A stretch of 64,000 nucleotides of DNA, taken from a phage. Shown piece by piece: positions 3,905 to 61,776 of the stretch; positions within the stretch are counted from its first letter, which is position 1; each line of letters opens with the position of its first letter. The stretch is taken from assembly GCA_024672315.1 (NCBI GenBank), contig GCA_024672315.1_4714.1; one strand, given 5' to 3'. Made by a program: the position numbers and the translations under genes. The notes beneath the pieces are model-generated. The model was not told the DNA's origin. It saw only the letters and a program-made list of their open reading frames with translations, and searched no databases.

Positions 3905-4924
3905 TTACACCGCCACCTTAGCCTTGATAGCCGGATGTGATTGATATCCAACAAACACAAAGTCTTCGTAACGGTAATCCGTAATACTTTCCGGTTTACG
4001 TACGATTGTTAGCTTCGGTAATGGATACGGCTCACGACTGAGCTGCTCTTTAACCTGTTCGAAGTGGTTGTGATAGATGTGGCAATCTCCACCCGTCCAC
4101 ACGAACTCACCAACGTCCATATTCAGCTGTTGGGCAAGCATATGTGTTAACAACGAATATGATGCGATGTTGAACGGTGTTCCAAGCAGCGCGTCCTGCG
4201 ATCTCGCGATCAGCATACACGACAAGGCACGTGTTGGTACGTTATGCGCATTCAACCAAAGTTCCGTTTCACTGTGTCGTACGTCATCCGTAACCCACTG
4301 GGTTCTTAATACGTCATTGTGCTGGACATAATCAACACGTTCATCGATCGTGAGTTCGTGGGTATAGAACTGATAAAATGAATGGCACGCGGGAAGCGCC
4401 ATATCGTCTAAATCACCTACGTTCCACGCGCTAACGATGATCCGTCGAGAATCAGGATCTTCTTTAAGCTGACGCATCACGTTTGCAATCTGATCGTGAG
4501 GTTTAACATACACGAGGTGTTTTAGCATACCGCCATCAAGAATGCCGCAATATTCATAGCCGCGTTGCATCAACTCACGAGTACGTTCTGTATCGTGCGG
4601 AACAACCACTTTGTAGTCGATCCATTCCCGCCATTGTTTGCCGTAAATCGGTCCTAGATTCCCTTCTTCGTCAGCCCATTCATTCCAAATACGAACACCG
4701 TTATCTTGAAGATAAGCAACGTTTGTGTCGCCGTTAAGAAACCAGAGCAGTTCGTGGATAACGCTCTTAAGGTGAATCTTCTTGGTGGTTACCAGCGGAA
4801 ATCCTTTCTTCAAGTCAAAACGCATTTGACGCCCGAATACAGAACGGGTCCCGGTGCCCGTGCGGTCGGCCTTATCGCGACCGTTATCCATGATGTCTTG
4901 CAAAAGGTCCAAATACTGTTTCAT
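3905..4924 (-). CDS. thyA: thymidylate synthase family protein (ThyA-like, with two insertions)
   Basis: 339 aa; N-terminus MKQYLDLLQ...DRTGTGT...[21 protein letters not shown], catalytic [25 protein letters not shown] and WTGGDCHIY closely match E. coli ThyA as recalled; GAGGA Shine-Dalgarno; ATGA overlap with upstream ORF. Confidence 0.85.
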
Positions 4925-5124: not shown

Positions 5125-5289
5125 CGTTTTTCACCTCGTCGTAAAAGTAAATAGAGTTTTGTCGAGACGCCCTAATTACTTACAACGTCGGTTCTCCCGG
5201 CTTCAGAGAATTCTTAAAATCCGTTAGTTTTGATAGATAGGGTAAGACGGCATAAAAGCCTCCCATTACGGGAGGCTCTATTAATCAGC

Positions 5290-5838: not shown

Positions 5839-5924
5839 AATAGAACCTCATGATAATAGATAATAGAAATGATAGATAGTACAACAAATTGAGGGGGTAT
5901 TATCCCACCCCCTCGTAGGGATTA

Positions 5925-6532: not shown

Positions 6533-6865
6533 TTACTGAAACAAGACATTAAATTCGACGAGATATCCATCGGCTCTATCACCGCGATATCTGTTGCAGA
6601 AAACACCGAATTTCATCAAGAACGCACATAACTCTTCGGCTTTGTATAACGGAATACGATTTTCGTCGAGCAGAGGACACTTATGGCTAACCCGCTCCGA
6701 CGAATCAACGCAACACAAATAAAGAAGGAATCGAACAATAGCTTGGTTCTTAGTGAAGCTCTCGAATTGACCCGCGGTTCTGAACTCATCGAGGAGCTTT
6801 GTCGTTTTCTTCAATCGTTCACGATCAAGCATGTTAACCTCAATACGAACATAACCCTCCTCCAA
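6533..6865 (-). CDS. hypothetical protein
   Basis: 110-aa ORF. Confidence 0.35.
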   Translation of the reverse strand: MEEGYVRIEVNMLDRERLKKTTKLLDEFRTAGQFESFTKNQAIVRFLLYLCCVDSSERVSHKCPLLDENRIPLYKAEELCAFLMKFGVFCNRYRGDRADGYLVEFNVLFQ

Positions 6866-6895
6866 CCCAACAGGGAAGGAGGAGGGAATATGCTG

Positions 6896-13161: not shown

Positions 13162-13227
13162 CTTTATCTCCTTAACGGGTGCTGGTAACGCAGCATAAAC
13201 CCTCCCCGAAGGGAGGGCGGTTAACGA

Positions 13228-14286: not shown

Positions 14287-14973
14287 TTAACACATGATTT
14301 CACCATGTTTCTTTTCAACATACGTATAAACGTCATCCAAATAAGCAATGAGTTTATCACGATCCCCACACAGCGATTTAATCACCGCAATCTCTTTCAT
14401 ATAAAGCTGCTGACCTAACGCTGGATACGTAATCCAAGCGTAGCCGTCAGGCGCAAATTTAGAAATAAGATAATCGGCGGTTTCCTGTAATGCGAACTCT
14501 TTGCTCATCTGGCCGTAACGATGTTCGATTGCACGGATACCAAAACGTTCGCTATCGAGACGACCCATATCCGCCAGACGAAGCACCTGAGAAGCAACCG
14601 AACTACGTGGACCAGAGTACGATGCACGATGTTCAGCAATAAGTACGCGTATCTCCTCGATGTCTTCCGGTGTGAAAATATGCTGCTCGTTACGAAGCAG
14701 GATAACCGACGCACGAATACCCCCGATAAGGTGGTGGTATGTTCTGTTTTCGTGGCAAGCGATATCATGCATAAAAGCAGCGGTTAATAGACGACGACGT
14801 TCCGTGGGTCTGATGATCCCAACCACATCAGCAAGTTCATTTGCCAGTTCAACAACGGCAAGCACATGTTCTTCTTGATGTGCAAGATCGTTCTTCCGAA
14901 TATTTTCAATTACTTCAGCGCGTGTTTCCTGAGATAAAAAATTTAAACAATCCAACGAATATAAAGATTTCAT
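14287..14973 (-). CDS. HD-domain phosphohydrolase-like protein
   Basis: 228 aa; H...HD signature (AAFMHDIACHE); sits directly downstream of early-promoter-like motif 1. Confidence 0.5.
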   Translation of the reverse strand: MKSLYSLDCLNFLSQETRAEVIENIRKNDLAHQEEHVLAVVELANELADVVGIIRPTERRRLLTAAFMHDIACHENRTYHHLIGGIRASVILLRNEQHIFTPEDIEEIRVLIAEHRASYSGPRSSVASQVLRLADMGRLDSERFGIRAIEHRYGQMSKEFALQETADYLISKFAPDGYAWITYPALGQQLYMKEIAVIKSLCGDRDKLIAYLDDVYTYVEKKHGEIMC

Positions 14974-15013
14974 CGCACGTACCTCTTTGAATCTATTAAT
15001 AAATTTTCTTTAC

Positions 15014-15038
15014 TCACGTAAGTAATATAGCCGTGAAA
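15014..15038 (-). promoter_or_regulatory. conserved 25-nt promoter-like motif, copy 1 (TATATTAC core on the minus strand)
   Basis: Plus strand TCACGTAAGTAATATAGCCGTGAAA; near-identical copies at 39347 and 45204; lies about 50 nt upstream of minus-strand start codon 14973. Confidence 0.5.
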
Positions 15039-15133
15039 GGATTTGTGTTGGTCCGTCTCGATGCCCATCGTATTTTATGGATTGTCGAATGACGTCATTT
15101 TAAGGGACATCCCCGGCCTCCTCCCCAGGAAAG

Positions 15134-17263
15134 GTGTGGGGAGGAGTTTTTATCATACATTCTATTAAATCGAGCGCGATTATGTTGGATAGAATCAATC
15201 GTTTAATGAACCGAATAGCGGTTAAAAATCAGAGTAACAACACCGTGCATATCGGGGGTATCGATGCCTGGCGTCTTTCAGATGACATTCAGCGAATATG
15301 GGGTACCTCCCGATTTATGAAACATATGTTTCGTAATTTCTCTTCTAGTGGACTCAGTCTCCACAACTTTTACCTTCCCGATTTCGTTTATATTCTCGAA
15401 ACGATCATCGAAGCAAAGAATACCCGCAGTAATAAACGCATGCTGAAACACCTTATTGAGGTACTGCTGCAGGAAACCTGGTTGCAAAATACCACAATCG
15501 AGCAACCTGCAATCCTCGATAAAGCACGCATGAACAAAATGCTAACGCTCTCTTTGTTCGATTATCAAGATGAGTTTATCGACATCTATAACCGTAACGT
15601 ACCTAAATACCGACTGAAAGGATACGTGTGCGCAATGGGTGCCGGTGCGGGTAAAACAATCACCGCATTGGCTTTAAGCGCTGCAATGAACGTCGACGTA
15701 TTTGTGGTCTGCTGTCCTAAGAACACCATGCGTTCAGCATGGCAATCCGATGTAAACAAAGCCATCGTTGACCCTGCAACAGAAACCGCGTTCTGGTCAG
15801 ATACAATGCCCCCATCACAGCTGCAGAAAAGCGATAAGTATTATTTTCTGCATTACGAGTCGATGGGTTTATTAAACGATGTGATGATCAAGCATAAACG
15901 CACAGCGAAGCGCGTGTTGATCGTGGTTGACGAAAGCCATAACTTCAACGACAAGAACAGCCAACGTTCCCAACGACTGGTTGATCTCGTACAGACGATG
16001 CGTCAGACCATGAATGCGGATGTGCATGTCTTGTTTATGTCGGGTACGCCCGTTAAACAGATGGGTTCTGAGATGATCCCCTGTTTAGGTTGTATCGACC
16101 CGATGTTCCAAGGACAGGTGGTCGATAGCTTCAAAGCAATTTACGGTTTAACCAGCAGTCGCGCTAACGATATCCTCAGACATCGTCTTGGGTTCATGAT
16201 GCATGTCGTACCTAAAGAGGCTTACCGTAAAACCCGTCCGGAAGTTCAGGATGTTTACGTGAAGCTCCCTAACGGTAGCGATTATACCATCTCAAGTATC
16301 CGTGACGACATGGCGATATTTGTACGCGATCGGGCGAAGTATTACAAGGATAACTGGGGGCATTACAGAAAGATTTTTGATGATGCCTTGGACTACTATC
16401 GTAAGACTATTCGTACCGACGGAGAACGTAAAGAGCTATCTCGATACGAATCGATTGTTGCTCGTTTCCAGAAGGGTTACGACCCTGTCAGAGACAAAGA
16501 AGATGCGATGTTCTGCAACGCGTTTGAAAAACGTTCCATCATGCCGGTTCTTCCTTCTGATTTAAGGGTTGCTTTCAAAGACGCCAAGAGCGTCATCAAG
16601 TACGTTGGGTTGAAAATTCAGGGTGAAGCGTTGGCGCGTGTTCTAGGTGCAGCCCGCATTCGGTGTCATGTCGACATGGTGGAGTACATCGACTTCGAAG
16701 GGTACATCAACAACGCTGAAGCCAAAGTGTTGATCTTCACGTCGTACGTTCAGGTGGTTGAGCGCGTCGACAACATGCTTCGTGATGCGGGTTTCTTACC
16801 GGAACCCATTTACGGGAAGACCAACAAGAACATCAACCAGATACTTGCTCGTCTACGCGATGATCCTGACAGCGGTCCCGCTATCGCAACATTTGATAGC
16901 TTAGCTGAAGGGGTTCCAATGCTGATGTGTAATGTGGGTCTTTTCCTGAACAACCCATGGCGTTCATCCGATGAAATCCAAGCCATCAGTCGTCTCGATC
17001 GTGTAGGGCAAACGCAACCTGTTCGGATCTATCGTTTCATGTTGGATACAGGAAGCGAGGGTAACGTTTCTACACGTAGCCACGAAATCATGGAGTTAAG
17101 TCGACAGCTTGTTGAAGAAATCACGGGTGTCAAATACGTGGTGAACAAGCAAGACGATGTTAACTTGCAGGAAACGTTGGCGATGGAAGGATACGATCAA
17201 TACGTTACCGTAAACACCACGGAATACGATATTAAACCACGACCTGCGTTCTTGGAATGGTGA
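15134..17263 (+). CDS. SNF2/SF2-family helicase
   Basis: Walker A GAGAGKT, DExH-like VVDESHNF, helicase C-terminal motifs; track ORF starts at GTG 15134 inside a hairpin, first ATG is at 15182, so the start is uncertain. Confidence 0.65.
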   Translation: MWGGVFIIHSIKSSAIMLDRINRLMNRIAVKNQSNNTVHIGGIDAWRLSDDIQRIWGTSRFMKHMFRNFSSSGLSLHNFYLPDFVYILETIIEAKNTRSNKRMLKHLIEVLLQETWLQNTTIEQPAILDKARMNKMLTLSLFDYQDEFIDIYNRNVPKYRLKGYVCAMGAGAGKTITALALSAAMNVDVFVVCCPKNTMRSAWQSDVNKAIVDPATETAFWSDTMPPSQLQKSDKYYFLHYESMGLLNDVMIKHKRTAKRVLIVVDESHNFNDKNSQRSQRLVDLVQTMRQTMNADVHVLFMSGTPVKQMGSEMIPCLGCIDPMFQGQVVDSFKAIYGLTSSRANDILRHRLGFMMHVVPKEAYRKTRPEVQDVYVKLPNGSDYTISSIRDDMAIFVRDRAKYYKDNWGHYRKIFDDALDYYRKTIRTDGERKELSRYESIVARFQKGYDPVRDKEDAMFCNAFEKRSIMPVLPSDLRVAFKDAKSVIKYVGLKIQGEALARVLGAARIRCHVDMVEYIDFEGYINNAEAKVLIFTSYVQVVERVDNMLRDAGFLPEPIYGKTNKNINQILARLRDDPDSGPAIATFDSLAEGVPMLMCNVGLFLNNPWRSSDEIQAISRLDRVGQTQPVRIYRFMLDTGSEGNVSTRSHEIMELSRQLVEEITGVKYVVNKQDDVNLQETLAMEGYDQYVTVNTTEYDIKPRPAFLEW

Positions 17264-17268
17264 TTAAG

Positions 17269-17296
17269 AAGCTCTGTCTGACATCAGACAGAGCTT
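17269..17296 (+). terminator. intrinsic terminator-like hairpin followed by TTATG
   Basis: Perfect 12-bp stem AAGCTCTGTCTG/CAGACAGAGCTT with ACAT loop, then T-rich TTATGTTGTATTTG; directly after the helicase stop. Confidence 0.6.
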
Positions 17297-17363
17297 TATG
17301 TTGTATTTGTTGCAACAATCGTATGACGTATACGCGTTGTACTTATTTAATAAGGCAGAATAA

Positions 17364-18835: not shown

Positions 18836-18868
18836 CTTCCTCCCTACCCATAACGGGCGGGGAGGAAG
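18836..18868. terminator. bidirectional terminator-like GC hairpin
   Basis: CTTCCTCCC...GGGAGGAAG stem; A9 run on one side (T9 on the minus strand), TTTATG on the other; between convergent genes. Confidence 0.5.
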
Positions 18869-20182: not shown

Positions 20183-22813
20183 TTACAATTCAAAATCTTC
20201 ATCGATAACACGCTGGGTAAGCACTTTGTCGCTGAAGAACTCCACCTTGCGCTGATGGTATTTACGGTGCGCTTCGATAGAAGTACATACCAGATACCAG
20301 AACGTTGGCGTCATTCCTTCAAACTTCCCTTTCAGCTGACGCAGTCGTCCCAACACCTGAATGTTACCGGTTCGTGACCCCATCGCTAGCGTCATGAACG
20401 TCATCACCAAGTCAGGAAGGTCGATACCTGTACCTGCTGATTTCACGGTTGTAACGCTAATATCGTTATCCAGCAAGACCATGAAATCTTCTTCAGCAGT
20501 ATAAGGACCGATCTCTAACTCAGGAATACGCTCACTGAGATAGTGCGACAACGACTTACACATATCAACGGTTGCACAATACACCAGCATCTTCATGCCT
20601 TCCTGATACTGGTTCATGAAACCCTTGATAATAACGGTATAGATGAAGTTAAAGTACGCGAGTTTGAGTTGCTTGTTCTTCATGATAGACTGTTCGAATA
20701 TCGTGTGTGAATAAGCTCCGCCAAACCCTTTGTATCTGACTTTATCTGTACTGCGTAGTCGATATGTTACCGCATTTACCGCAATGTATTTCTTGTATTC
20801 GCCTTTCGCATAACGGGCTTCTTTCGGATACATCAAATACAACATCTGTTCGATAAACGGATCATCGGATACCGCTGTTGCCGACAGATAAATGATTTCC
20901 GGAATATTGGCGTAACACTTGACCTTAAACAAGAAATGCAATGCTTCGTGACACTCGTCATGAATCAGCAAACCTATGCCGGTCTTTTCCCAAAACTCAG
21001 CGGGATGGAAGGCATATGGTGCAACGCAATTATTCTTCTCGTAGTCCGCAATGTAACGTTGGAACATGTTCAAGGAGAACAATGCGATTTTGAAGTCGAG
21101 CTCACCTTGTTCAACCAAGGTTTGAAACTCCAACATACTGTAACGAGGAATGTCGGGATGCGGTGGATCCTCCTTAGCGTTCCCGCGTATCTCGATAACG
21201 TCCCCTGGTTCCATCCCGAAGAAGTTCAGCAGTGAGCTTCGCCAACCTGGCATGTATCTCGGCGACAGAATGATACCCGTCCGTACACCACGTCTAAACA
21301 CGATTTCCTGTGACATCGCGGTGTTATGCGTGACGATAAAGTCTTTCACCACAAACAACGCTGAAGGATCATCGATCGTAATGCAACGTGCATCCGCAAC
21401 ACGGGAAGGTTTAATTGACAGTACACGTAGCATACTTTCGAAGTATTGTCCGTCAACAGGACAGCGTTCCAGCTTCTTCGGAAGCGTAACGATTTCATGC
21501 GGACGTTTATACCGTATCGTAACCATGTACGCTAGCCGTCCCTTATGTCTCTCCCCCTTGTAGGTGTAATACGGTTGTTTAATACGTAGACGAGCATACC
21601 CACCAATCGAACGAACCAAGTAGATAACGTCATCTGAAAGCTGTTTGCTCGAAGTACAGAAAACAATAGATCCTCCCTTCTCCACCGTTCCGTCGGTATC
21701 GATAAGACCTGCGAGTATTTCGCAACGTTGTCTGTGTGACGCCATCATGTACTGTTTCGGAACAAACTTCTCCCAGGATCGTTTACCCATCAACCCCAAC
21801 TGATCAAGCGCTAATGCCGTCTCTGACCGCCCACCGTAATTGATTAACGTTGCGGCAGGCGTCTTCGTTACCGCATAGTCGTATTTCTCGCGGTACTGTA
21901 TTTCACAGTCATCCGGAAGACGACTTAACACCTTATTCAAGATGAAATCGTCAGGAGTTGTGATTATCGGGGATGTTGATAAATGACCATCCCCTAACAG
22001 AACACCAAGCACGTACGGATCAAGCGGTAGATCTGCATCAGGAGTATGCTCAGACTCACAGTACGGAATGTAAAGTCGTTTATTGGACAGCTCCAGGATA
22101 CGAATCATCTCAAGTGTATTGATAACCCGCATGGGATAAGGATTGTTTTTGTCCCATCCCCAGTTAGGTCTCATACATGCCCAGAGATGCTCGCCGCAGG
22201 CTTCAACACGGCGACCGTCAGCAAAGACAATCTCATAGAGCTGTTTTGCTTTATGGTCGAAGATATTGGTTACCTTCGTTGGTCGGCCATTAGCAGCCGT
22301 GATGGTATCACCTATCTTCAAATCGCCTAATTGACGCCATCCGCCAGGGACTTTTACGAGCGTGGTAAGCGGATTTGCTTTACCCGACCCCGTTTGAGCG
22401 GTGTTTAGGCTCATTCTGAAGGGGGTATCCTTACCCCCGTCCATGTACTCCAACCATTCTTGCTGATCTTCACGCCATGGAAACTTCCATTTCTTTACGA
22501 ACTCCACTTCTTTACCTGGCACCGGATCGTGATAAACGATTTCCAACCACTCTTTTCGTATCCCTCGGGAAAAGATAAAATCCAAAAACGATTTCAATTG
22601 TTCACGGAGTAAGTATACCTCGCTATAATCGCTTCTCGCTGCGGCATACGTGTTTATGGTATCGGTAACCATTCTCCGTGTACGAGGGTCACGCCGTTTC
22701 CTCAGATGCAAACAACGGTCTCGAAGGTAATGGCCGATAAGATGGGCAAATCGAAGTCCGTATCCGCTCAGCCTCATGCCATGCGAGAAGACGTCGATAC
22801 GAGCTAACTTCAT
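20183..22813 (-). CDS. SF2 helicase containing an intein (host protein plus intein)
   Basis: 876 aa; Walker A TGSGK is interrupted, followed after about 352 aa by T and later DExH motif LIHDECHEA and helicase C-domain motifs; ATGA overlap with the upstream beta-prime C gene. Confidence 0.75.
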   Translation of the reverse strand: MKLARIDVFSHGMRLSGYGLRFAHLIGHYLRDRCLHLRKRRDPRTRRMVTDTINTYAAARSDYSEVYLLREQLKSFLDFIFSRGIRKEWLEIVYHDPVPGKEVEFVKKWKFPWREDQQEWLEYMDGGKDTPFRMSLNTAQTGSGKANPLTTLVKVPGGWRQLGDLKIGDTITAANGRPTKVTNIFDHKAKQLYEIVFADGRRVEACGEHLWACMRPNWGWDKNNPYPMRVINTLEMIRILELSNKRLYIPYCESEHTPDADLPLDPYVLGVLLGDGHLSTSPIITTPDDFILNKVLSRLPDDCEIQYREKYDYAVTKTPAATLINYGGRSETALALDQLGLMGKRSWEKFVPKQYMMASHRQRCEILAGLIDTDGTVEKGGSIVFCTSSKQLSDDVIYLVRSIGGYARLRIKQPYYTYKGERHKGRLAYMVTIRYKRPHEIVTLPKKLERCPVDGQYFESMLRVLSIKPSRVADARCITIDDPSALFVVKDFIVTHNTAMSQEIVFRRGVRTGIILSPRYMPGWRSSLLNFFGMEPGDVIEIRGNAKEDPPHPDIPRYSMLEFQTLVEQGELDFKIALFSLNMFQRYIADYEKNNCVAPYAFHPAEFWEKTGIGLLIHDECHEALHFLFKVKCYANIPEIIYLSATAVSDDPFIEQMLYLMYPKEARYAKGEYKKYIAVNAVTYRLRSTDKVRYKGFGGAYSHTIFEQSIMKNKQLKLAYFNFIYTVIIKGFMNQYQEGMKMLVYCATVDMCKSLSHYLSERIPELEIGPYTAEEDFMVLLDNDISVTTVKSAGTGIDLPDLVMTFMTLAMGSRTGNIQVLGRLRQLKGKFEGMTPTFWYLVCTSIEAHRKYHQRKVEFFSDKVLTQRVIDEDFEL
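21323..22378 (-). mobile_element. intein with LAGLIDADG homing endonuclease domain
   Basis: About 352 codons between GSGK and T; Hint-like N-terminal block, two LAGLIDADG motifs (LLGDGHL, AGLIDTDGT), C-terminal VTHN followed by +1 Thr; first intein residue appears to be Ala. Confidence 0.7.
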
Positions 22814-25447: not shown

Positions 25448-25604
25448 AATCTCATTTCCTCTTCTACGTAGAAATAGATGACATGTTGGATATACGTTGC
25501 CTTTGCATATATTGCTTTATTTCCGTCAGAAATAACGGAAAATAAAAACAACAACATAGTTCCCTCCCACCTCCACATGGGAGAGGGAGGGCTATACGTG
25601 TTTA

Positions 25605-26348: not shown

Positions 26349-26467
26349 ACCAGGGATCCTCTTTTAAGTGTTCACATTCTAGTGTTAAGCAGTTAAAATA
26401 AACCGTCCCTTTAATCAGCATAAACATCCTCCTCCCACCACATGGGCAGGAGGAGGCGTAATATGCA

Positions 26468-26889: not shown

Positions 26890-29058
26890 TTAGCTTTCGC
26901 AGTCATCTGCGTCGATGATTTGTCCGCCAGCAACGTTCAGCTGATGATACAGGATCCTCAACGCACGGTTGCCGCCAATGGGATACTTCTCGAAGTTGGT
27001 CGCAATAGGAATCGCTGACGGCTTATCGGTCGCATAGATGCTTTCAGTGATGCTATCCACCTGTTTTGGATTGTTCGCATAGTCCATAAAGACGCTTGCG
27101 AACCATCCGCCAGCAAAGGCGGTAACTTCGCGATGTTCAGATTCACCACAGTAACGAGTCGGTTGCTCTTTACCAGGGGAACTGTATTTATCGCTATTAC
27201 TGAGTTTCGACGGTAATCCGTGCGCTTGCAGTTTAGGAATACCCACAGCTGACCAGTCGTTCGCCGTCTTCTCCAACATCATGATGTACGTGTCACCGAT
27301 CGCAATATCGTTCTTGGTTGTCCGCCATTGCCCGGAACGCCCACGATACCGTACAGGACCTTTCTTCAACGGGAACTCACGAATCAGATTCTCCATACGT
27401 TCTGAACCTGCTGCGATACTGTCCGTCGGGATATAAACTTCCGTACCGTGGCGTTGTACGTACCGTAAATGATCCCATTTATCCTCATCCGTGATACAGT
27501 ATTTTTCAACAACCTGTTCCACGAACTCAGGACTGACGATATAGTAGTAGCGCATCAGTGTGTTCCAAGCGGTCTCCAGATCGCCTGCATCCATCACCGG
27601 TTTCAGTTCACGCATGATCTGATCACCAACACCGTTGATGTATGGCGCATTAACACGACTCAAACTCATCCTTTTGATTACCGTGCTATCGTCGAACATA
27701 AAGTCCGCAACATTACCCCATTGGTCAACCGGCATTTCATCGTCTTCCATGATGTCGGTTACGACGAATTTATCACCCGCCATACCGGTGAATTTAAACC
27801 CGATACCTGGAACAACGTCGTACGTGTAGGTGATGGTCACACGCCAATCATCGAGATTCTCTTTGCGGTAATCGCGGGTTGGTAACACATGACGTAGCTG
27901 TCCGTTCGGATTGCGGATATCGATACCGTGTTCAGCATCAGCCAGGTTCAACCACCACATCACCGTTTGATGATGACGTATCGGCGTACCAACGCGTTCA
28001 CGTTCGTACTTACGAACAGCATCCTGAATTCGGGTGTAAAGCAAACCGATTGCGTTTTCATATTTCAGGAATTGACGATACGGAGGACGCATCTTCTCTT
28101 CCATCATAATCGCACGCTCGCGGGCTTGACGTCCAGAACGACGATGTCGATCGCTGACAACATCGATATCCGTTACACGCGCATTCGGTTCAGCGTAAGT
28201 GAGATCATCGTAAACATAATCCACACGCTGAAGGTTACATGTCATCATGTCAACAACGCTAAGAATAGGATCGATTTCGCGTGTTGCTGCAAGTAACCCA
28301 TCTTTACGAATACGCTCACCGTTCTCGGGTATTGCTTGATATACCTCGTCATCACCGTAGAGATTGATTGGGTATCGTGATTTACCTGACGTGATTGTTC
28401 GCTTCTCAATACCTGTGCTGGTGAAATGCTTCAATACACCACGACGGGCAACACCACCATCCTCGATACACTGATAGAAGCTACCGAAACACACTTTGCA
28501 ATCGCGACCGTAACCCCACTCGCGTGTTTCTTGATTGATCGCTGGGCTTTCCATCAAACGAGAATATCGCGGTACGATCTGGCCTCGACGGAGGGAATGG
28601 AACAAGTTGGTTGGTCGAAAACGGAAACCGTACTGCTGATGCATGATGTGATGCTCAGGCACTTCAAGCAAGCGTAGCTCGTGACGGTTACCATCCTCTT
28701 GGTTTTCATACAGCACGTAATGCATCGTGTTTGTTTTGATGCTGTTTGCTGTATGCCCCGGTTGGAAACGTGGGATGATATCTATGATGCGAGATTCGAC
28801 TGGAAACTCTACTGACCACGTGTTCTGTCCGTACTGGTATTCGATCCCCGTCGTCAGTCGGGACGGTTTCGCATCTTTGATAACCAACGCTTGGCTAAGA
28901 TGTCCACCAAACATCGCAGCGCGCTGTGCTGAGTTATAATGCAGTAGCCCGTTAAGTCCAGTCCCTACGCCAGTATACTCCTGTTTAATGGGAATGATTT
29001 TACCTTCAGCGATTGCCTGCTTCACAGATTCATAAAGAGGTTTTTCTTTATAATGCAT
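26890..29058 (-). CDS. multisubunit RNA polymerase beta-like subunit, C-terminal fragment
   Basis: YNSAQRAAMFGG resembles GANMQRQAVP; GDKFVVTDIMEDDEMPVD...SRVN resembles GNKGVVSKI..EDMPY..SRMN; GDTYIMMLEK resembles GYMYMLKL; CGESEHREVTAFAG resembles GGQRFGEMEVWALEAYG; start placed at ATG 29058 (SD AGGAAG) rather than track start 29223. Confidence 0.65.
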   Translation of the reverse strand: MHYKEKPLYESVKQAIAEGKIIPIKQEYTGVGTGLNGLLHYNSAQRAAMFGGHLSQALVIKDAKPSRLTTGIEYQYGQNTWSVEFPVESRIIDIIPRFQPGHTANSIKTNTMHYVLYENQEDGNRHELRLLEVPEHHIMHQQYGFRFRPTNLFHSLRRGQIVPRYSRLMESPAINQETREWGYGRDCKVCFGSFYQCIEDGGVARRGVLKHFTSTGIEKRTITSGKSRYPINLYGDDEVYQAIPENGERIRKDGLLAATREIDPILSVVDMMTCNLQRVDYVYDDLTYAEPNARVTDIDVVSDRHRRSGRQARERAIMMEEKMRPPYRQFLKYENAIGLLYTRIQDAVRKYERERVGTPIRHHQTVMWWLNLADAEHGIDIRNPNGQLRHVLPTRDYRKENLDDWRVTITYTYDVVPGIGFKFTGMAGDKFVVTDIMEDDEMPVDQWGNVADFMFDDSTVIKRMSLSRVNAPYINGVGDQIMRELKPVMDAGDLETAWNTLMRYYYIVSPEFVEQVVEKYCITDEDKWDHLRYVQRHGTEVYIPTDSIAAGSERMENLIREFPLKKGPVRYRGRSGQWRTTKNDIAIGDTYIMMLEKTANDWSAVGIPKLQAHGLPSKLSNSDKYSSPGKEQPTRYCGESEHREVTAFAGGWFASVFMDYANNPKQVDSITESIYATDKPSAIPIATNFEKYPIGGNRALRILYHQLNVAGGQIIDADDCES

Positions 29059-29448: not shown

Positions 29449-29477
29449 CCCTCCCACAGCGTAAAGCGTAGGGAGGG
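29449..29477 (+). terminator. GC hairpin followed by TTTATGCCG (plus orientation)
   Basis: CCCTCCC...GGGAGGG stem, then CATTTATGCCGTC; immediately after the stop of 29078..29443. Confidence 0.5.
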
Positions 29478-29508
29478 CATTTATGCCGTCGTTCGATGAC
29501 TTAATACA

Positions 29509-38702: not shown

Positions 38703-38797
38703 TTCATAGAGTGGTGGAAATTCGTAGAAAGTTACAAAAATAAAAAAGAATGGGTAGCCCCTCCCCACCCGAAGGTAGGGAGAGACCGCAAATATAT

Positions 38798-39283: not shown

Positions 39284-39346
39284 TAGGATTTAATTTCCAA
39301 TATAAGGACAATGTGATATGCCTTATACAGTCGATTGATGTTGTAC

Positions 39347-39371
39347 ATCACCTAAGTAATATAGCCGTGAA
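39347..39371 (-). promoter_or_regulatory. conserved 25-nt promoter-like motif, copy 2
   Basis: Plus strand TCACCTAAGTAATATAGCCGTGAAA; about 70 nt upstream of minus-strand start 39283. Confidence 0.5.
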
Positions 39372-40179: not shown

Positions 40180-40221
40180 GATTGTCCTCGTTTTCAATTT
40201 TAAGATTGCGTGCGGCATAAA

Positions 40222-40246
40222 CCCTCCCCGCCTTATGCAGGGAGGG
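40222..40246 (-). terminator. GC hairpin followed on the minus strand by TTTATGCCG
   Basis: CCCTCCC...GGGAGGG stem; minus-strand TTTATGCCG at 40213..40221. Confidence 0.5.
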
Positions 40247-40261
40247 TAGCCATTAAATGGA

Positions 40262-40900: not shown

Positions 40901-40915
40901 TACAGGCGTCCTCCT

Positions 40916-43151
40916 TTAGCAATGGTTGTTAGTTGCTTCTATTTCGTCAAGATACGGTTCTACGTCATCGCCCTCCACGAATTCGTTGAACCAACAGTCA
41001 ATGGTAGAAATAACCGGTGACTGGTGTTCACATTTCTTAGATACCTTAAAAGGTACGTTATTATCCATCATACCGAGTTCGGGTCGAAAACGCCCGAAAT
41101 GTTTCGCAGTCCAAATGTCTGGGACGATATGGTTGTTCATAGCGTCTCCGTCGCTGTTTATCGACTATATCTTCATCCTCATTGCGAGGAGTCTCCCGTT
41201 TGGGTCTGTGTTTAACAGAGCCTACTCTACTCGACGTCGCGTCTTTCGATAGTCTGTGAGCACACATCTTAACAAACATTCGTGGATTCCTAAACAGGTG
41301 AATGTTCTTGTTGAGATGCTTCGCTGCGGATTATTCCCGTCCTACCTCTTTTACCGTACCCAGTTCATTACGCTGGCCCTCATCTATGTCACCACGATGA
41401 GTTGGTGTGTAGTCCGATTACAGAAACTTCCCGTCAATTAGAGAGTTTTAACTACGTTCCTGTTACCAGAAACCAGATCCCGACGGTATCAATAAATCAA
41501 CGTAAGTTATTGATTTAATTGAAAAAACTGAAATCTGCATTATCTAAATCTTCAGTATGGTTCGCTACGCCATACCCGCACATACGTGCAACTTACGTCT
41601 TTCACGTAAGAAGAGACTATATCTTTCACCCTCAGCATTATCTGGTCGGGGCTCCCATTTCGGCGGTCATCTGACCGGTGGTTTCCCACGCCGCTTGGCC
41701 CTAACGCCCGTAAGCGATAGTCGTTGAGCGCATCTCCGTTCTGGAGACTTCGCTGCGGATTCCCCAATCCTTGCCGCTTTTACCATACCCGAATGATTAG
41801 TTCAGCCCCACGCGCTGTTCCCAGGCGTGGTTGGTGGACAAGGCTCTAAGTAGGTTCCCGCATTAGAGAGTTCCTCGTAACAACATTTCTGCGTTACTGG
41901 GCCTAACGACCCTTTCAAGATCATCACGCTTAACCCGATGGTGTTATCCTGCGGATCGCGTTTAACCTTGGTGATTTCAAGACATTGGTTACTGCTTCGG
42001 TCAAGTGATGGGTTTCGAACAAAGCCACACACAATCCCATCGAACGGTGTATCAGCAATAAGCTCATCATGCAGCTCGCTCATCATCGGATGATAATTAC
42101 GGACATGTTCCGCAACGAACGCACGTGCTGCTCTTGGTGAATAACCACGATGGAATAACTTGGATTGGATATGTTCTTTATTGGTTAAAGTAAATGGTGC
42201 GTATGGGAAATGCAGATGATAATAACGATGGTTCGCTGTTATCGAACTGATTACGGTACGCGTGGTAAATGGATGTAATGTACCTAATATGTTTTTACGT
42301 GTGATACCTTTCTTCTTACCGATGAACTCATCGAAAATCGCCGCATGGTATTGCAGCAGCTTCAATTGCACTTTCGCCATCCAGTTTTCTTTCTTTCTGG
42401 CGCTCAAAGGTGTTGTTGGATGATAGATACTGTTCAACGTACCGATAGCATCGATCGCACCTTCCATTTTGCTATCCGCATAACGACCGGTTGGCGTATT
42501 CTCGATAACGAACATCATGGCCGCAGGAAAGCTGATATACTGACTGAAGAACTTATCACGATGAATACGGATGAATTCTCGTAGCGTGTCAACTTTCTCC
42601 GTGTTCTTCGGTCCACGTAACGTCGGTCCTTTATACAAGATCTCCATGATGCGATCGAAGTTCTGTATAAAACTATTTACGCCACGTCGTATCCCGAATA
42701 CATCGAATTGCTGCTCCAGATAGTTCTTGAGTTCGATGGGTCGTTTTACATTTGGACGGTAACTGGCATCAATGAGCCACGTCATCGTTTCAAAGCTTTT
42801 GATATTCAACTCGCTTGCCAGCACGAGATGGACCAACGGGTTAATGAACGCATCGATTCCTTCAGGAACGCGCGCCCACACCGTCGAACGAATCTCCTGT
42901 TCTGCTGGGTAGGTTACAACCGTTTTACAGTTTGGACACACCGTGCCGAGCAGCTCACCACGATTGTAGAAACCACAACCACATTGTGGCGTGATATCCA
43001 ACGTATCGCTGGAGTAAACACGGGTGATAAAACTGTTTAATTTCTTCTTCTCTTCGACGACTTTTGTATCGTAATCGTTCAACAAAATCGGCGTAAAAGG
43101 AAGTTCTGCGAGCTGTCTATCGAAACTCACGATATCGAGCATGATGGCCAT
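40916..43151 (-). CDS. multisubunit RNA polymerase beta-prime-like subunit, N-terminal fragment, interrupted by two putative group I introns
   Basis: Exon 1 (43151..41879) has zinc-ribbon CGCGFY...CPNC and RNPSLDR resembling NRAPTLHR; proposed micro-exon 41543..41531; exon 3 (41153..40916) encodes DGDAMNNHIVP...LGMMDNN resembling DFDGDQMAVHVP...LMMSTNN; spliced length 1524 nt, in frame. Confidence 0.65.
41154..41530 (-). ncRNA. putative group I intron B (377 nt, no ORF)
   Basis: Minus-strand Q-like AATCCGCAGC (41332..41323), R-like GCTCACAGACTATCG (41261..41247), S-like GAAGATATAGTC (41174..41163); AAATC (41516..41512) complementary to exon end GATTT; ends in G; 5' region homologous to intron A. 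Confidence 0.6.
41544..41878 (-). ncRNA. putative group I intron A (335 nt, no ORF)
   Basis: Minus-strand Q-like AATCCGCAGC (41761..41752), R-like GCTCAACGACTATCG (41729..41715), S-like AAAGATATAGTC (41626..41615), GAAA-loop hairpin (41610..41592); starts after an exon U, ends in G. Confidence 0.6.
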
Positions 43152-43193: not shown

Positions 43194-43217
43194 GGGAGGG
43201 AGGTTGCCCTCCCTCCC
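43194..43217 (-). terminator. GC hairpin between the 631-aa gene and the beta-prime N gene
   Basis: GGGAGGGAGG / CCTCCCTCCC perfect 10-bp stem with short loop. Confidence 0.5.
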
Positions 43218-45139: not shown

Positions 45140-45203
45140 TTGGGATTCCTCTTTTCTTAAACTTTATTAAATGACGTCATTGAATCAGCTTCTACTCGCT
45201 CAT

Positions 45204-45228
45204 TCACCTAGGTAATATAACCCTGAAA
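45204..45228 (-). promoter_or_regulatory. conserved 25-nt promoter-like motif, copy 3
   Basis: Plus strand TCACCTAGGTAATATAACCCTGAAA; about 75 nt upstream of minus-strand start 45139. Confidence 0.5.
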
Positions 45229-45393
45229 TTTTTTTCAATATTGGTGTAACCGCATTGAACGATATAAACCCCTAGGCGAACGCTGCCGAGAAGCAACATT
45301 CTTTCTACATATAATCAGGATATGTCTGTAAACTTTTACTTCTCTTATTGAGAGTAATGTCATATCCGTTTACCATCTTCTTACGGAGTTCGT

Positions 45394-46488: not shown

Positions 46489-46554
46489 TCACCTCCCTCT
46501 TCCCTTGCATCCTCCCAACCCGTAAGGGAAGGGAGGATGGGGTGGTGGATTATG

Positions 46555-48708
46555 TTACTCTGTGGTTTCTCGCTTCGGTAAATAACTTGCTGCAATGTCT
46601 TGGGCTAACAATGTATTGTTTTTATTCGAGATGAAAATACCGTAACTTTCCATTAACGCGTAATACGAACGCACGAGCGTAGAGATCAATCGACGAATAT
46701 CCATACCTTGAATAAAGATATCGGGAAGCCCGGAGGCTTCGATCACCGGTAATGGTATCGTTAAGTTGCTTATCGTTTTCTTATCGTTACGTACAATCCA
46801 ATCACGGAAACGTTGTTGTAACCCTTTATCCTCCCAGGAATCAATCCAATCGTTAAGAAGCGTTTTGTTCTTCGTCGCCAACGGCACACGAACCCCAACA
46901 TAGGGTGGTTCCTGGCAATGGCCGTACGATTGAGCAAACACCTCTTCCCACATATCGTAAGACTGTTTCGTTACTGCAACATGCGGTTTCACTTTAACAC
47001 GTGTTAAGAAATCAGGATCACCACGTTTCATGGACTCAACGATTTCGTTTTCTAACGAGATAATATCGTCAAGAACCAATCGAATGCTGATCTTCTCATT
47101 ACGTAACAGCTTATCCATGATACCGCACATCATGCGTTCAACACGTTTGACGATCATTTTTGGTGCTGACGCATCGCGCATAACCGGACCTTTCAATTCC
47201 AGCTTCGGTGGATTGATAGGAACCCCTTCACGCATGGTCATGTAACCGTAATAGTTTTTACCCATCGAGGTTAACGACAGAATCAAGAACATATATTCGT
47301 TCTTCATTTCCATCACGTACATATGCTCTTTCGCCACACCGATATTACCAGAACACATCGCCATCAGATGGACTGTAATCTGCGTAACCAGATAGATAAG
47401 CGTGTTTGCTAAGCGCGTCGAAACTGGATTGATCTCCATATTTCCAAATCGCCACTGAACCCACTCCTGGCAGGTAAACACTGTCGAGTCGGTATCAGAC
47501 AACACACCCACTTCACGGATTGCTGATGGGAAAGCATAAACGCCAGCCGGTTGATTCTCGGTACGCCAGAACGCCATAATCAAATCAGCGTAGCTTTGGA
47601 TACGCTGTAGCATTAATTTTGTCGTTGCTGCGGTAAGACGATAACCAAGTTCATTTCCTTTTTCTAGCGCTACGTAAATCGCCTCCCCATTCAAGAACTC
47701 CGTGCATTGTGCTGTAATCCAAGCAACCGTGTTGTTATCCATGGAAGCAATAATGGCTTTAGCCTCTTCCATCGTTTCAACAGGTTCGGATGCCAGTTCA
47801 CATAACGAGTCAAGAAAATCTCGAACAAATTCAGGATTAAGCTCACGTAACGAGTACAGGTTATTGCTGTACATGTAGCAGGCGCGTTCTAATGGCGTTA
47901 AACCGGTAATTAGCTCCCGGATGGTCAGCTCTTTCTCTGGGTCGAAAGTATATCGATGCAAGCATTTCGATACGTTAGCCCAAACCTCTTCCGGCGTAGG
48001 GTAATGCAGTTTGTATTTTACCATTACCTGCTCAATGGCTTTACGATCGCTATTACGAACAATGCTCACGATGTTTTCAATTGCGATATCACAATCGTAA
48101 TAATGGAAATTGCCCGCAAGGAAGCGTTCGTTGTTCGCATTGGCTGAACCTGAAGCACAGCGACATGTTGTCGTTAAGCTTGGATGCGCAATCGGATTAT
48201 AAAAAGGGTTGAACTTGGACGCCTGGGTTCCTGACAAACTGTTGTTATCTAACTTGGTGTTGGTTTGTCGCTTATCGTGTAACTCAGCTTCATCTTTACG
48301 TCCGTGTGCTTGTGCTATCGACATTTGTTTCTTTTGTTTCTTACGCAACTTACCGTTTTCAACCGCAAAGTCGCTTAGCACACTGGAGCGTGTCTCACGT
48401 GGATAACAGTTAGCCCACACCGGCGTGATAATTAAATTATTTTCTTTAATATCGTTGAAGTATTGGCTGAACTTGATGACTTCTTTTTCACGATTTCCTT
48501 CGGTACGCTGTGTTAATACCAGGCAGTCGGGATCAACCATCCCGTATTTTCCACCAGGACGAACCGTTTCAAGAACAAACTGCAACGCTTCCTGCTGAGA
48601 TATCCCACGCATGCGCATTAAGAATAGGGTATAATCCTGTACCGCTTCTTTGGTCATATCCAACGTACGACCATATCCGTTTTCATCGTAAAAGAACGGA
48701 TTTTCCAT
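46555..48708 (-). CDS. hypothetical large protein
   Basis: 717 aa; GGAGGA Shine-Dalgarno; contains SDTDS, but motif order does not fit a canonical family-B polymerase. Confidence 0.5.
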   Translation of the reverse strand: MENPFFYDENGYGRTLDMTKEAVQDYTLFLMRMRGISQQEALQFVLETVRPGGKYGMVDPDCLVLTQRTEGNREKEVIKFSQYFNDIKENNLIITPVWANCYPRETRSSVLSDFAVENGKLRKKQKKQMSIAQAHGRKDEAELHDKRQTNTKLDNNSLSGTQASKFNPFYNPIAHPSLTTTCRCASGSANANNERFLAGNFHYYDCDIAIENIVSIVRNSDRKAIEQVMVKYKLHYPTPEEVWANVSKCLHRYTFDPEKELTIRELITGLTPLERACYMYSNNLYSLRELNPEFVRDFLDSLCELASEPVETMEEAKAIIASMDNNTVAWITAQCTEFLNGEAIYVALEKGNELGYRLTAATTKLMLQRIQSYADLIMAFWRTENQPAGVYAFPSAIREVGVLSDTDSTVFTCQEWVQWRFGNMEINPVSTRLANTLIYLVTQITVHLMAMCSGNIGVAKEHMYVMEMKNEYMFLILSLTSMGKNYYGYMTMREGVPINPPKLELKGPVMRDASAPKMIVKRVERMMCGIMDKLLRNEKISIRLVLDDIISLENEIVESMKRGDPDFLTRVKVKPHVAVTKQSYDMWEEVFAQSYGHCQEPPYVGVRVPLATKNKTLLNDWIDSWEDKGLQQRFRDWIVRNDKKTISNLTIPLPVIEASGLPDIFIQGMDIRRLISTLVRSYYALMESYGIFISNKNNTLLAQDIAASYLPKRETTE

Positions 48709-54142: not shown

Positions 54143-54985
54143 ATGGGTGCTATTGACTACAGTGTAGATCGTATCTGTCGTACAATACCGGCAGATATCC
54201 TACAGTATTGCTATATCGATCGTTACGACTGGCGTAATCGCTATCCTCGTTCCGTAGAAGACATCATTACCGATTGGGTAATCCGTAAACGGGTTATCGG
54301 CGACATCGATATCTACGGGGGACTACAAACCGTTATTCCCCTTGATGATGCCGGTGTCACTATCGAAGAAGTCACCATTAACTGTTATGTTTTCCACATC
54401 CCGTTGGAAGCCACGCAGGGACGTTATATCACGTCTGCATTATCCATTATTTCAGGGAGCGTGAACAACTACGGAATAAACTATAACGGTCAATGGGGCG
54501 CTTTCAACCAAACCCAATTTCAACGTCAGCTTTGCGGATGGAACCCCGCAAGCAACACATTACAGCAAGGGATGAACGCGTTCGGTCCCATGAACGTTCT
54601 TAGTACAGCCAACGTTGATATCATCGCCCCTAACACCATCATGGTGAACAACGTCACGCCTGTACAATTTCCCCTGAGTCTACGTTGTTTCCTTGCCCAC
54701 GATCCGGAACTTACTAACCTCAGCATGGAGGTTTGGAACGACTTCTACAAACTCTGTTTATACGCCACACAAAGTGACATCTACAACAGAACCGTTATCC
54801 GTCTTGATAGAGGTGTTACAGCACAAGGACAAGAAGTCGGTGCATTCAAGGAATACATCGATCGCTTTGCTGATGCTGAAAACACATATCAGGAATTCCT
54901 GAACGAAACGTGGGCTGGCGTTGCTGCCTGGAACGATCCACAAACTAAACGTCGCGCCATTCGTTTGCAAACCGGTTACTTCTGA
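54143..54985 (+). CDS. hypothetical protein
   Basis: 280-aa plus-strand ORF. Confidence 0.45.
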   Translation: MGAIDYSVDRICRTIPADILQYCYIDRYDWRNRYPRSVEDIITDWVIRKRVIGDIDIYGGLQTVIPLDDAGVTIEEVTINCYVFHIPLEATQGRYITSALSIISGSVNNYGINYNGQWGAFNQTQFQRQLCGWNPASNTLQQGMNAFGPMNVLSTANVDIIAPNTIMVNNVTPVQFPLSLRCFLAHDPELTNLSMEVWNDFYKLCLYATQSDIYNRTVIRLDRGVTAQGQEVGAFKEYIDRFADAENTYQEFLNETWAGVAAWNDPQTKRRAIRLQTGYF

Positions 54986-55593
54986 TTAACGATAGCTTCC
55001 TCCCTCGGTGTTTTCGAGGGAGGTATTTGCCGTTTAAACACTTTCAGCACGTTCGTAAATTCAGCAGCAATAATACAGGCCGAGGTTGATAGCTTATTGC
55101 TGAAAATGAGATCGTCCGGTAAACAATCGAACTGAATACCGTATTGCGTCTTTGTCTCATCAACGATCAATGACGGTGTCGATCTTGTCTTCGCAATGTC
55201 GGTGATATACAAACGTAAAAATAATTCACCGTCTTCGCTATCCATAAAACGATAGGCGTTACCAGAAAACGCAACACATGGTGTAACGATAAATTGAACA
55301 CGATCGTCGATCGGATGGATATTTAACCAACGTTCGATATCATTACTACTCACATTTTGCATATTTACTACGGTAAAAGCAAATAGCGTATCGTGATGCT
55401 TGGAATAATGCAGCACATACGCCGCACCTTTCTTTTTGTGAATCCCTTCAATGTATTCTATTGTCGTATAGCCGGATTTATATAGCTTTACTTGCGGTTT
55501 CTCACTCATCATAACAGCCCTTCCCGTTTCATCGCAGCGCGCATACTTGCGTAAAGCGCATTCTTCATCGCACCTGGACGCAACGGATAACAA
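54976..55593 (-). CDS. hypothetical protein
   Basis: 205-aa ORF. Confidence 0.4.
   Translation of the reverse strand: MLSVASRCDEECALRKYARCDETGRAVMMSEKPQVKLYKSGYTTIEYIEGIHKKKGAAYVLHYSKHHDTLFAFTVVNMQNVSSNDIERWLNIHPIDDRVQFIVTPCVAFSGNAYRFMDSEDGELFLRLYITDIAKTRSTPSLIVDETKTQYGIQFDCLPDDLIFSNKLSTSACIIAAEFTNVLKVFKRQIPPSKTPREEAIVNQK
54999..55023 (+). terminator. GC hairpin after plus-strand gene 54143..54985
   Basis: CCTCCCTCG / CGAGGGAGG stem with GTGTTTT loop, followed by TATTTGCCG. Confidence 0.45.
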
Positions 55594-59839: not shown

Positions 59840-59944
59840 TGCATTGCCTTCCGCGAGTGTAATCAGGAAGGTAATGTAGGTTTATTTTAATCTCCATTTC
59901 GCGATGATATGACAGTCTTTATTACGTTTACCATCTGAGGGAGC

Positions 59945-61189: not shown

Positions 61190-61382
61190 CAATGTAACGG
61201 TAAAACTTTACTGACGTTGGTTATTATTTGAAGCATAGGGCTTCACCCAGGAGTACCATCCCTTTAAGTCGTTTGTCCTCTCCTGGTTAACTGTCGTTCT
61301 CTCACAGTGCTCGACAGACCAAAAATGCTCAGGCCTCATAGCCTCCTCTGGGAATGGAACCCAGAGGAGGACTATGTTTGCC

Positions 61383-61691: not shown

Positions 61692-61776
61692 GGCGTACCT
61701 CAACGTTATACGTCGTTTGTATTATAATACGCTATAGTCTCCCCGCCTATATTAACGGGGAGTCTGCAGACTACTC

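Follow-up and report, generated by a model that had tools for sequence, protein, structure and literature searches.

Terminators built on one shared hairpin motif have been mapped in two Pseudomonas jumbo phages. In phiKZ, 61 RNA 3′ ends mapped by ONT-cappable-seq gave the consensus BCCYCCCCHWWDGGGRRGGBYTTATKYYGT (Putzeys et al. 2024, Microlife, PMC10914365), and in 201phi2-1 the same motif (motif A) is found in 59 of 132 terminators, several of which terminate in a reporter assay; there, the host polymerase too was stopped by terminators of the family (PMC11512511). Some terminators lie ahead of genes: the phiKZ study places 42 of them, across six phages, in 5′ untranslated regions (5′ UTRs) and reports 17 candidate non-coding RNAs that phiKZ derives from 5′ UTRs by premature termination; at T102, in the leader of PHIKZ221, more than 90% of transcripts are aborted and a 71-nucleotide (nt) RNA is seen on a northern blot (PMC10914365). 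In 201phi2-1, eight such small RNAs are described, the terminators T055/T056 come immediately behind the promoters P033/P034, and the authors raise antitermination as a possibility (PMC11512511). Transcription by the non-virion RNA polymerase of phiKZ begins at the G within a TATG motif (PMC4666361; PMC12809450). Here we analyse a hairpin upstream of a helicase gene in a 64,000-nt stretch of phage DNA (NCBI GenBank assembly GCA_024672315.1, contig GCA_024672315.1_4714.1), which as a whole we call the window, together with the hairpin family to which it belongs.

The window comes from a close relative (identity about 96%) of the nucleus-forming jumbo phage Escherichia phage vB_EcoM_Goslar, with 96.7% identity over a 5-kb stretch around the helicase-leader hairpin and 95.6% over a 10.3-kb alignment; window position 14000 corresponds to Goslar position 141771, and homologues of the RNA polymerase β and β′ subunits are annotated in the syntenic Goslar region. 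Goslar is a genetically tractable E. coli model for nucleus-forming phages. We propose, with a probability of roughly one half, that the hairpin and its U-tract (15118–15151) act as a premature terminator in the 5′ leader of the helicase gene, releasing an RNA of about 73 nt and limiting helicase expression in the manner of phiKZ T102.

A terminator-like hairpin in the helicase leader

The hairpin occupies 15118–15146 on the plus strand, with arms CTCCTCCCCA (15118–15127) and TGGGGAGGAG (15137–15146) enclosing the 9-nt loop GGAAAGGTG. Its stem has 10 perfect pairs, 7 of them G–C, and a predicted RNA free energy of about −20 kcal/mol, and a run of five T residues (T5, 15147–15151) adjoins its 3′ end. 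The run gives a U-tract in the plus-strand transcript only; in the minus-strand reading GCCGGGG comes after the stem, and hence no U-tract. The locus thus presents the canonical form of a Rho-independent terminator, a stable GC-rich hairpin and then a U-tract on the transcribed strand. A simple terminator scanner passed over it solely through its 8-nt loop limit, and the GenBank record of Goslar carries a ‘putative transcriptional terminator, -14.80’ on the plus strand exactly at the equivalent position, between gp159 and gp160.

The stem also belongs to a known family. The 30-nt phiKZ consensus matches window positions 5247–5276 (minus strand) with two mismatches, where 0.00 matches are expected; a 40-kb piece of phiKZ holds seven CCTCC..GGAGG hairpins against 0.10 expected; and the 16-nt core CCTCCCTTCGGGGAGG of two phiKZ hairpins is identical to window 13201–13216 in its minus-strand reading. 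Judged from these sequence matches, the hairpin family of the window is the known chimallivirus terminator motif and not a new family. The arms of 15118–15146 conform to those of the phiKZ motif (CCYCCCC and GGGRRGG). A co-directional gene just upstream, which is usual for the motif, is absent here; it is not obligatory, because the phiKZ study found terminators in 5′ UTRs.

This absence sets the hairpin apart within the window, where it is the sole arm-type family member without an upstream co-directional gene; no plus-strand gene lies upstream of 15118 within more than 14 kb. It sits in a divergent region, 35 nt upstream of ATG 15182, between an HD hydrolase gene on the minus strand (14287–14973, Goslar gp159) and a SNF2/DEAD-like helicase gene on the plus strand (15182–17263, start ATG 15182), which corresponds to Goslar gp160 and is a homologue of phiKZ gp203. 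An initial annotation of the window had correctly described a hairpin followed by a T run at this place, not downstream of any co-directional gene and between the divergent promoter region and the helicase start, and the attenuation it suggested, in the sense of premature termination, is the reading that our data support best.

Whether the hairpin is a leader element depends on where helicase transcription begins. Just 30 nt separate the T-run from ATG 15182; they are the most variable part of the region, and they contain no TATG except one overlapping the start codon. No sigma70-like promoter was found on the plus strand of the helicase–hydrolase intergenic region. A start downstream of the hairpin is unlikely because it would have to lie within these poorly conserved bases, and if the helicase mRNA must pass through the hairpin, the hairpin is therefore a leader, or premature, terminator. 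The contrary arrangement would be an insulating terminator that blocks plus-strand read-in or antisense transcription from the 14-kb minus-strand block, with the helicase promoter overlapping or following the hairpin. It would agree with the position of every other family member, which is that of an end-of-transcript signal, and with reports from phiKZ of antisense transcripts and of terminators in antisense orientation (9% of terminators; PMC10914365); and at another hairpin of the window, 59840–59878, no intergenic room is left for an upstream plus-strand promoter and a TATG lies downstream of the hairpin, 34 nt before the ATG. In the helicase leader, however, the same arrangement must make do with the 30 nt just described, and nine genomes agree throughout the 50 nt ahead of the hairpin, which a bare insulator does not require. 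We regard insulation as possible but rather unlikely.

Control of translation fares far worse. The 3′ arm reads GGGGAGGAG, and GTG 15134 is in frame with the helicase open reading frame (ORF); the GGGAGG arm as a Shine–Dalgarno (SD) sequence, or GTG 15134 as the start codon, could thus be hidden in the stem, as the initial annotation had envisaged. Yet alignments with about ten distant homologues start at the first residue of the protein that begins at ATG 15182, and 1-nt insertions or deletions between 15134 and 15182 in three Goslar-like genomes (L011, L014 and L015) break the frame, so the stretch between the two codons is not coding. The ATG and its weak SD sequence lie 25–35 nt past the stem. 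Folding the leader, a check proposed with the initial annotation, bore out the hairpin and spoke against sequestration of the start site: in both the minimum-free-energy and the centroid structure the hairpin forms independently of the start region, the centroid of the leader comprising the hairpin and a weak AU-rich downstream helix and the 74-nt fold the hairpin only. Across the family, 1 of 16 hairpins (40221–40247) has a start codon within SD range, which leaves little of the proposal that the SD-like 3′ arm serves as a ribosome-binding site; the arm looks as it does because this is a property of the conserved terminator stem. We consider translational control by the leader hairpin hardly credible.

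A sharply bounded conserved block

Aligned with Goslar, the 208-nt helicase intergenic region shows 0 differences, compared with 25 in 351 nt for the other intergenic regions of the same 10.3 kb, and the longest mismatch-free run of that alignment (14938–15218) is centred on it. An alignment of nine Goslar-like genomes, namely the window, Goslar and seven more from metagenomes (helicases 93–100% identical), delimits the conserved unit. Within 15068–15151, 4 of 84 columns are variable, against 10 of 21 in the flank 15047–15067 and 6 of 21 in the flank 15152–15172. The block ends exactly at the T-run and begins about 10 nt before the invariant TATTTTATGG; its first part, 15068–15117 on the plus strand, is an invariant segment that holds TATTTTATGG (with TATG at 15076–15079), the palindrome AATGACGTCATT (15088–15099) and GGGACATCCCC. 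The four variable columns consist of a 1-nt insertion, one T-to-G change in the T-run (TTTTT in eight genomes, TGTTT in one) and both sides of the pair 15127/15137, where the sole change in the stem, found in L011, is a compensatory one from A:T to G:C. As sequence evidence, the boundaries of the block are stronger than the covariation of the leader stem. The 84-nt block is present as a single copy in Goslar, is absent from other phages and has no homologue outside the Goslar clade. Extended sequence common to several copies, of the kind expected of mobile elements resembling repetitive extragenic palindromes (REP) or miniature inverted-repeat transposable elements (MITE), was not seen in the family, whose members share arms and tail only.

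Three further readings draw on this conservation, all of them less likely than insulation. First, the leader could be structured without terminating transcription, either stabilising the mRNA against decay that depends on the 5′ end or being bound by a phage protein for nuclear export or translation control. The whole of 15068–15151 is conserved, beyond the stem and the T-run, and the loop GGAAAGGTG is invariant; ChmC, an RNA-binding protein of the phage nucleus, contacts many PhiPA3 mRNAs close to their 5′ ends as well as short RNAs without annotation, and the regions upstream of Goslar gp23 and gp30 have a TATG and then directly a hairpin. But ChmC has no known binding motif, the stem is the terminator stem of the family, and T5 after a 10-bp GC stem, kept in eight of the nine genomes, is standard intrinsic-terminator geometry, which together make a leader of this kind doubtful.

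Second, the block could be a stand-alone gene for a small RNA of about 73 nt that acts in trans, its proximity to the helicase being incidental. The block does form a sharply delimited conserved unit of fitting size that closes with a putative terminator, phiKZ and 201phi2-1 produce such short RNAs, and a 13-nt palindrome, AATGACGTCATTT, is common to the block and the chimallin 5′ region. When the 39-nt 5′ part was scanned with RNAduplex against the 5′ regions of all 75 genes of the window, however, no target stood out and chimallin fell outside the top eight. Nor did Rfam return a family: the window gave no hit at the gathering threshold and 14950–15210 none at E ≤ 1. The block also lacks both a second copy and a homologue beyond the clade. 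A trans-acting RNA gene is, on this balance, quite improbable.

Third, the conserved element could act as DNA, as a cruciform or a protein-binding site in the divergent promoter region, with no RNA role. The palindrome at 15088–15099 is a perfect one of 12 bp that recurs in the chimallin divergent region, and densely packed protein-binding sites could account for the complete conservation of the region. Three properties of the hairpin point to RNA instead: members of the stem's family are placed behind stop codons and, as mapping in phiKZ showed, at RNA 3′ ends; the T-run, present on one strand only, has been conserved; and G·U and U·G substitutions in related members fit one RNA strand only. 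A purely DNA-level function is very improbable.

Two motifs of the divergent region are also found elsewhere in the window. The palindrome, as AATGACGTCATT(T) with the core TGACGTCA, occurs exactly twice, at 15088–15100 in the helicase leader block and at 45170–45182 in the chimallin 5′ region, both divergent regulatory regions, and is invariant in nine genomes at the first site; a scan of the genome collection with TNNAATGACGTCATTT proved too unspecific for use. On the minus strand, an early-promoter-like motif, CACGGCTATATTACTTACGTGAG (15013–15035), would drive the HD hydrolase gene and is invariant in the helicase-leader alignment; a 17–20-mer of it recurs ahead of chimallin (about 45212) and ahead of the gene that begins at 39283. 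In extended form, (C)ACGGCTATATTACTTA(G/C)GTGA, the motif is present at 15013–15035, about 39346–39369 and about 45202–45225 (all minus strand) and at Goslar 2550–2575, that is, 50–110 nt ahead of four genes: HD hydrolase, the one with its start at 39283, chimallin and Goslar gp4. The motif probably represents the early (virion polymerase) promoter of the phage.

A candidate premature terminator

Under premature termination, the start site, termination in vivo, read-through and its regulation would take the following course, as we infer it. By analogy with phiKZ late promoters, in which TATG spans −3 to +1, the best candidate start is G15079 of the invariant TATTTTATGG; this TATG lies 39 nt upstream of the stem. 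The phage RNA polymerase would start there, upstream of the hairpin, transcribe a 39-nt structured segment and then the 10-bp hairpin, and most complexes would stop at the U-tract and release the RNA of about 73 nt. Those that read through would yield helicase mRNA, translated from ATG 15182. The leader element would in this way set or time-gate the amount of helicase, the short leader RNA being a by-product.

Several observations weigh against this proposal. The 9-nt loop exceeds the approximately 4 nt (HWWD) of the phiKZ motif, and the tail after the stem, TTTTTATCATAC, has the TTAT of the family consensus and lacks its KYYGT part; apart from loop length and this partial tail, no testable defining feature contradicts the reading of 15118–15151 as a terminator. 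Covariation in the stem comes down to one event and is statistically weak, with its score equalled in 71 of 500 column shuffles. Conservation of the leader could also reflect DNA-level sites. TATG is not sense-enriched in the intergenic upstream regions of the window (23 sense versus 22 antisense occurrences), so the proposed start at 15079 is argued from conservation and analogy only. Finally, by eye, Eowyn, Ea35-70 and Proteus phage 10 have no comparable GC hairpin directly before the helicase, which makes the leader-hairpin arrangement specific to the lineage.

Outside the Goslar clade, the helicase keeps its divergent orientation. The equivalent divergent regions of Noxifer and phiKZ each hold a family-type hairpin, with the tail TTATGCC, that faces the neighbouring gene. 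The phiKZ region in question, a 350-nt divergent region upstream of gp203 (16769–17118 of L019), folds with unusual stability (z = −2.97), and its family-type hairpin, followed by TTTATGCC, is directed towards PHIKZ204.

Two ideas about TATG were set aside. As a statistical promoter mark in the window it found no support, and 15076 is retained as a candidate for its invariance only. A general module of terminator hairpin plus TATG for re-initiation was weakened by the TTTATGCCG tail at 29481, which lies in a convergent region with no downstream gene, and by the reference phiKZ late promoter P119L, which has no upstream hairpin.

The hairpin family in the window and in Goslar

The pattern CCTCC-N3-25-GGAGG has 17 matches in the window, at 13 loci, against 0.39 ± 0.62 in shuffled sequence, and none of 100 shuffles reaches 17; 11 of the 13 loci are intergenic, and intergenic DNA makes up about 9% of the window. 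Syntenic Goslar DNA yields 12 and 7 matches and the first 50 kb of Goslar nine against 0.24 expected. With scans that covered about 115 kb of the 237-kb Goslar genome, the family is spread over at least the roughly 115 kb examined. The description of the family in the initial annotation as genome-wide and mostly intergenic is thereby confirmed, with amendments. All 13 further coordinates that it listed hold a hairpin; two of these (5891–5914 and 43194–43217) have reversed arms, G-rich first, and one (54999–55023) lies inside the 3′ end of a convergent ORF. Its count of more than 15 was backed by 14 listed hairpins, and two that it missed (6853–6888 and 46507–46540) bring the total to 16.

Reading every intergenic region in the sense of its flanking genes, we curated 25 compact hairpins. 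All but three (22/25) begin 4–33 nt past the stop codon of a co-directional gene, and several lie between convergent genes; for members other than the leader hairpin, the position past a stop codon means simple termination. Arms run C-rich 5′ and G-rich 3′ in 14 of the 16 arm-type members. This pyrimidine-then-purine order holds on both strands, the pattern being its own reverse complement, and stability alone does not explain it. Loops of members other than the leader hairpin measure 4–15 nt, or the stems are two-tiered. Many hairpins are followed by the tail TTTATGCCG or TTTATGCTG, others carry TTATGTTG or TTATACG, and the seven TTATGCYG octamers of the window all lie directly after a hairpin.

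The helicase gene itself is followed by a member of the family as its 3′ terminator, a 13-bp hairpin with the tail TTTATGTTG (17268–17305, plus strand), which reads TTTATGCYG in most relatives. Across eight Goslar-like genomes, 98% of cells in its alignment are paired, two pairs have changed on both sides, and 2 of 500 shuffles reach its covariation score.

On the minus strand, members follow stop codons throughout. The hairpin at 5247–5277, after stop 5290, is composed of AGCCTCCC, GTAAT, GGGAGGCT and TTTATGCCGT, and that at 13191–13218, after stop 13228, of CCCTCCC, TTCG, GGGAGGG and TTTATGCTG. A two-tier hairpin at 6853–6888 (after stop 6896) differs from its Goslar counterpart in the loop alone. 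Others lie at 25562–25591 (after stop 25605), 26416–26456 (after stop 26468, tail ATGTTTATGCTG), 38761–38790 (after stop 38798, with U·G where Goslar has C–G), 40213–40247 (after stop 40262, with a TTTATGCCG tail in which the ATG has been annotated as start codon of the following gene) and 61739–61762 (after stop 61777, CTCCCCG..CGGGGAG). The two reversed-arm hairpins are likewise on this strand: 5891–5914, after stop 5925, has GAGGGGGT..ACCCCCTC and a terminator annotation in Goslar, and 43194–43217, after the chimallin gene, has GGGAGGGAGG..CCTCCCTCCC and the tail TTATACG. The plus-strand member at 54999–55032 begins 13 nt past the stop of the gene at 54143–54985, with the tail TATTTGCCGT, inside the end of the convergent ORF mentioned above.

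Four members carry no strand assignment. One, at 61342–61370, is 12 nt past stop 61383; the others are between convergent genes. Of these, 18836–18868, which has a conserved stem and varying flanks, is probably a bidirectional terminator because of that position, and 46507–46540 shares the setting. At 29449–29488 the plus-strand tail is CATTTATGCCG and no plus-strand gene follows, which shows the TTATGCCG tail to be part of the terminator and not the promoter of some gene beyond it. The TTATG of the family tail does contain TATG, the bases by which the non-virion polymerase recognises promoters with its β-like subunit; as a speculation, the terminator might act by means of a promoter-like pause in the non-template strand.

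Differences between window and Goslar members, compared by pattern searches and small alignments, fall into three classes: changes in the loop (6856, 29450 and 54999); a change from C–G to U·G at 38761–38790 that keeps pairing only in the minus-sense RNA; and a compensatory change from T:A to C:G at 17277/17288 in the helicase 3′ terminator. These sequence differences indicate that selection acts on the structures of the family hairpins.

Within Goslar (MK327938), identical two-tier hairpins of 26–30 nt (CCTCCTCCAACCCGTAAGGGAAGGAGGAGG, CCTCCCAACCCGTAAGGGAAGGGAGG) recur at 27747–27776, 48108–48137, 134586–134615, 4152–4177 and 174270–174295, which suggests that a sub-type whose inner stem is CCC-GTAA-GGG is favoured or that one site was copied to another.

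Other leader-position hairpins

Plus-strand terminator-like hairpins with T-rich tails also stand in divergent regions before Goslar gp13, gp23 and gp211. The gp13 hairpin is annotated as a terminator, with the tail GTTATTTTC and a TATG about 73 nt before the tail; that of gp23 reads GGAGAA..TTCTCC and then TTTT, with a TATG directly before it. The gp211 leader hairpin is the one at window 59840–59878 on the plus strand, in a region identical to Goslar. It has 13 bp with two G·U pairs, is stable only as plus-strand RNA and is followed by GTTTATTTTAAT. On one side it adjoins the start codon of the divergent gene on the minus strand; on the other, 66 nt separate it from the plus-strand gene at 59945. 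In this phage, hairpins in leader position thus appear to form a small class and not an isolated case. A more speculative step, which we think unlikely to be right, is that the terminators in the leaders of the outward-facing genes gp13, gp23, gp160 and gp211 together form a regulated gate, opened by a phage antitermination function or a polymerase switch, that would time virion-associated genes, with leader RNAs of about 70 nt having functions of their own.

Further features of the window

A few features bear on promoters and annotated starts. The sequence ATCGTATGACG at 17318–17328 (plus strand), 39 nt before ATG 17364, is invariant in eight Goslar-like genomes between variable flanks and begins with ATCGTAT like the helicase-leader block; it is a candidate TATG-type promoter. 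CGTTTACCATCT occurs on the plus strand at about 45364–45375 and about 59916–59927, just upstream of the ribosome-binding sites of the genes starting at 45394 and 59945. Two annotated starts read ATGCCG, at 40213–40221 and 59834–59839 (both minus strand), the first being the ATG in the TTTATGCCG tail after the hairpin 40221–40247; these starts may be mis-called, or the hairpin 3′ arm may serve as SD sequence at 40213–40247. After the terminator at 6853–6888, a minus-strand ORF at 6533–6838 has a good SD sequence (GAGGTTAACATG), and Goslar annotates only a plus-strand ORF there (gp145), possibly a difference in annotation.

Two loci differ from Goslar by large insertions or deletions. The SF2/RAD2-like helicase homologous to Goslar gp164 (20183–22813, minus strand) has 876 amino acids against 524 in Goslar. 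The extra stretch of about 352 amino acids carries LAGLIDADG_3 and Hom_end homing-endonuclease domains (residues 353–435), the window–Goslar alignment breaks at about 21326, and the stretch looks like an intein absent from Goslar. Beside the RNA polymerase β′ gene (40901–41801), about 400 nt are homologous to a group I intron annotated in Goslar, and the segment lacks about 1.4 kb that includes an HNH/NUMOD1 endonuclease ORF (Goslar_00186). It has no Rfam match at the gathering threshold, and the motif CTTCGCTGCGGATT...TTTTACC.TACCC occurs twice.

Comparison with known systems

The terminator signal mapped in two Pseudomonas jumbo phages extends to a jumbo phage of E. coli, with stems identical in places, which argues that the signal is read by the phage transcription machinery and was not shaped by the host. 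As in phiKZ and 201phi2-1, the motif in the window has a C-rich 5′ arm, a G-rich 3′ arm, a short loop and a TTAT(G/T)YYG tail, and occurs in dozens of copies per genome, mostly just after genes and some of them bidirectional between convergent genes. The differences lie in the host (E. coli, not Pseudomonas), in the many longer two-tier stems with loops of 5–15 nt and, for the copy at 15118, in a T5-ATC tail in place of TTATKYYGT and the lack of a gene upstream. For annotation, this means that ‘terminator’ features placed upstream of genes in such genomes probably represent genuine regulatory elements, not faulty predictions, and that start codons called inside the TTTATGCCG tail merit re-examination.

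Leader attenuators of the trp and pyrBI type share with the hairpin at 15118 a GC-rich stem and a following U-tract within a leader, whereas no antiterminator pairing, leader peptide or ligand-binding fold is evident here. Translation-coupled attenuation cannot apply, because transcription is by phage polymerases in a ribosome-free compartment.

The closest likeness is to the leader elements of phiKZ and 201phi2-1, from which leader terminators are known as an ordinary feature of this phage family. For phiKZ, transcript starts, 3′ ends and RNA sizes are measured values with northern-blot confirmation, whereas those of the window phage are deduced from its sequence; the T102 stem is AU-rich with a long loop and precedes a different gene, whereas the stem at 15118 is strong and GC-rich. 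Like the window's element, the leader elements of both phages are conserved within the genus. In our own reading of the phiKZ sequence, a layout not stated in the paper, the PHIKZ221 leader runs from a TATG through about 71 nt to a hairpin and TTAT, and then over 18 nt to the ATG. The helicase leader would run from its candidate TATG through 73 nt ending in hairpin and T5, and then over 30 nt to the ATG. Its sharply delimited, conserved 84-nt unit, before a probably virion-associated helicase, offers a test case for leader termination in Goslar, where, as at T102, a terminator would stand between promoter and start codon and its product would measure about 73 nt, next to the 71 nt observed in phiKZ.

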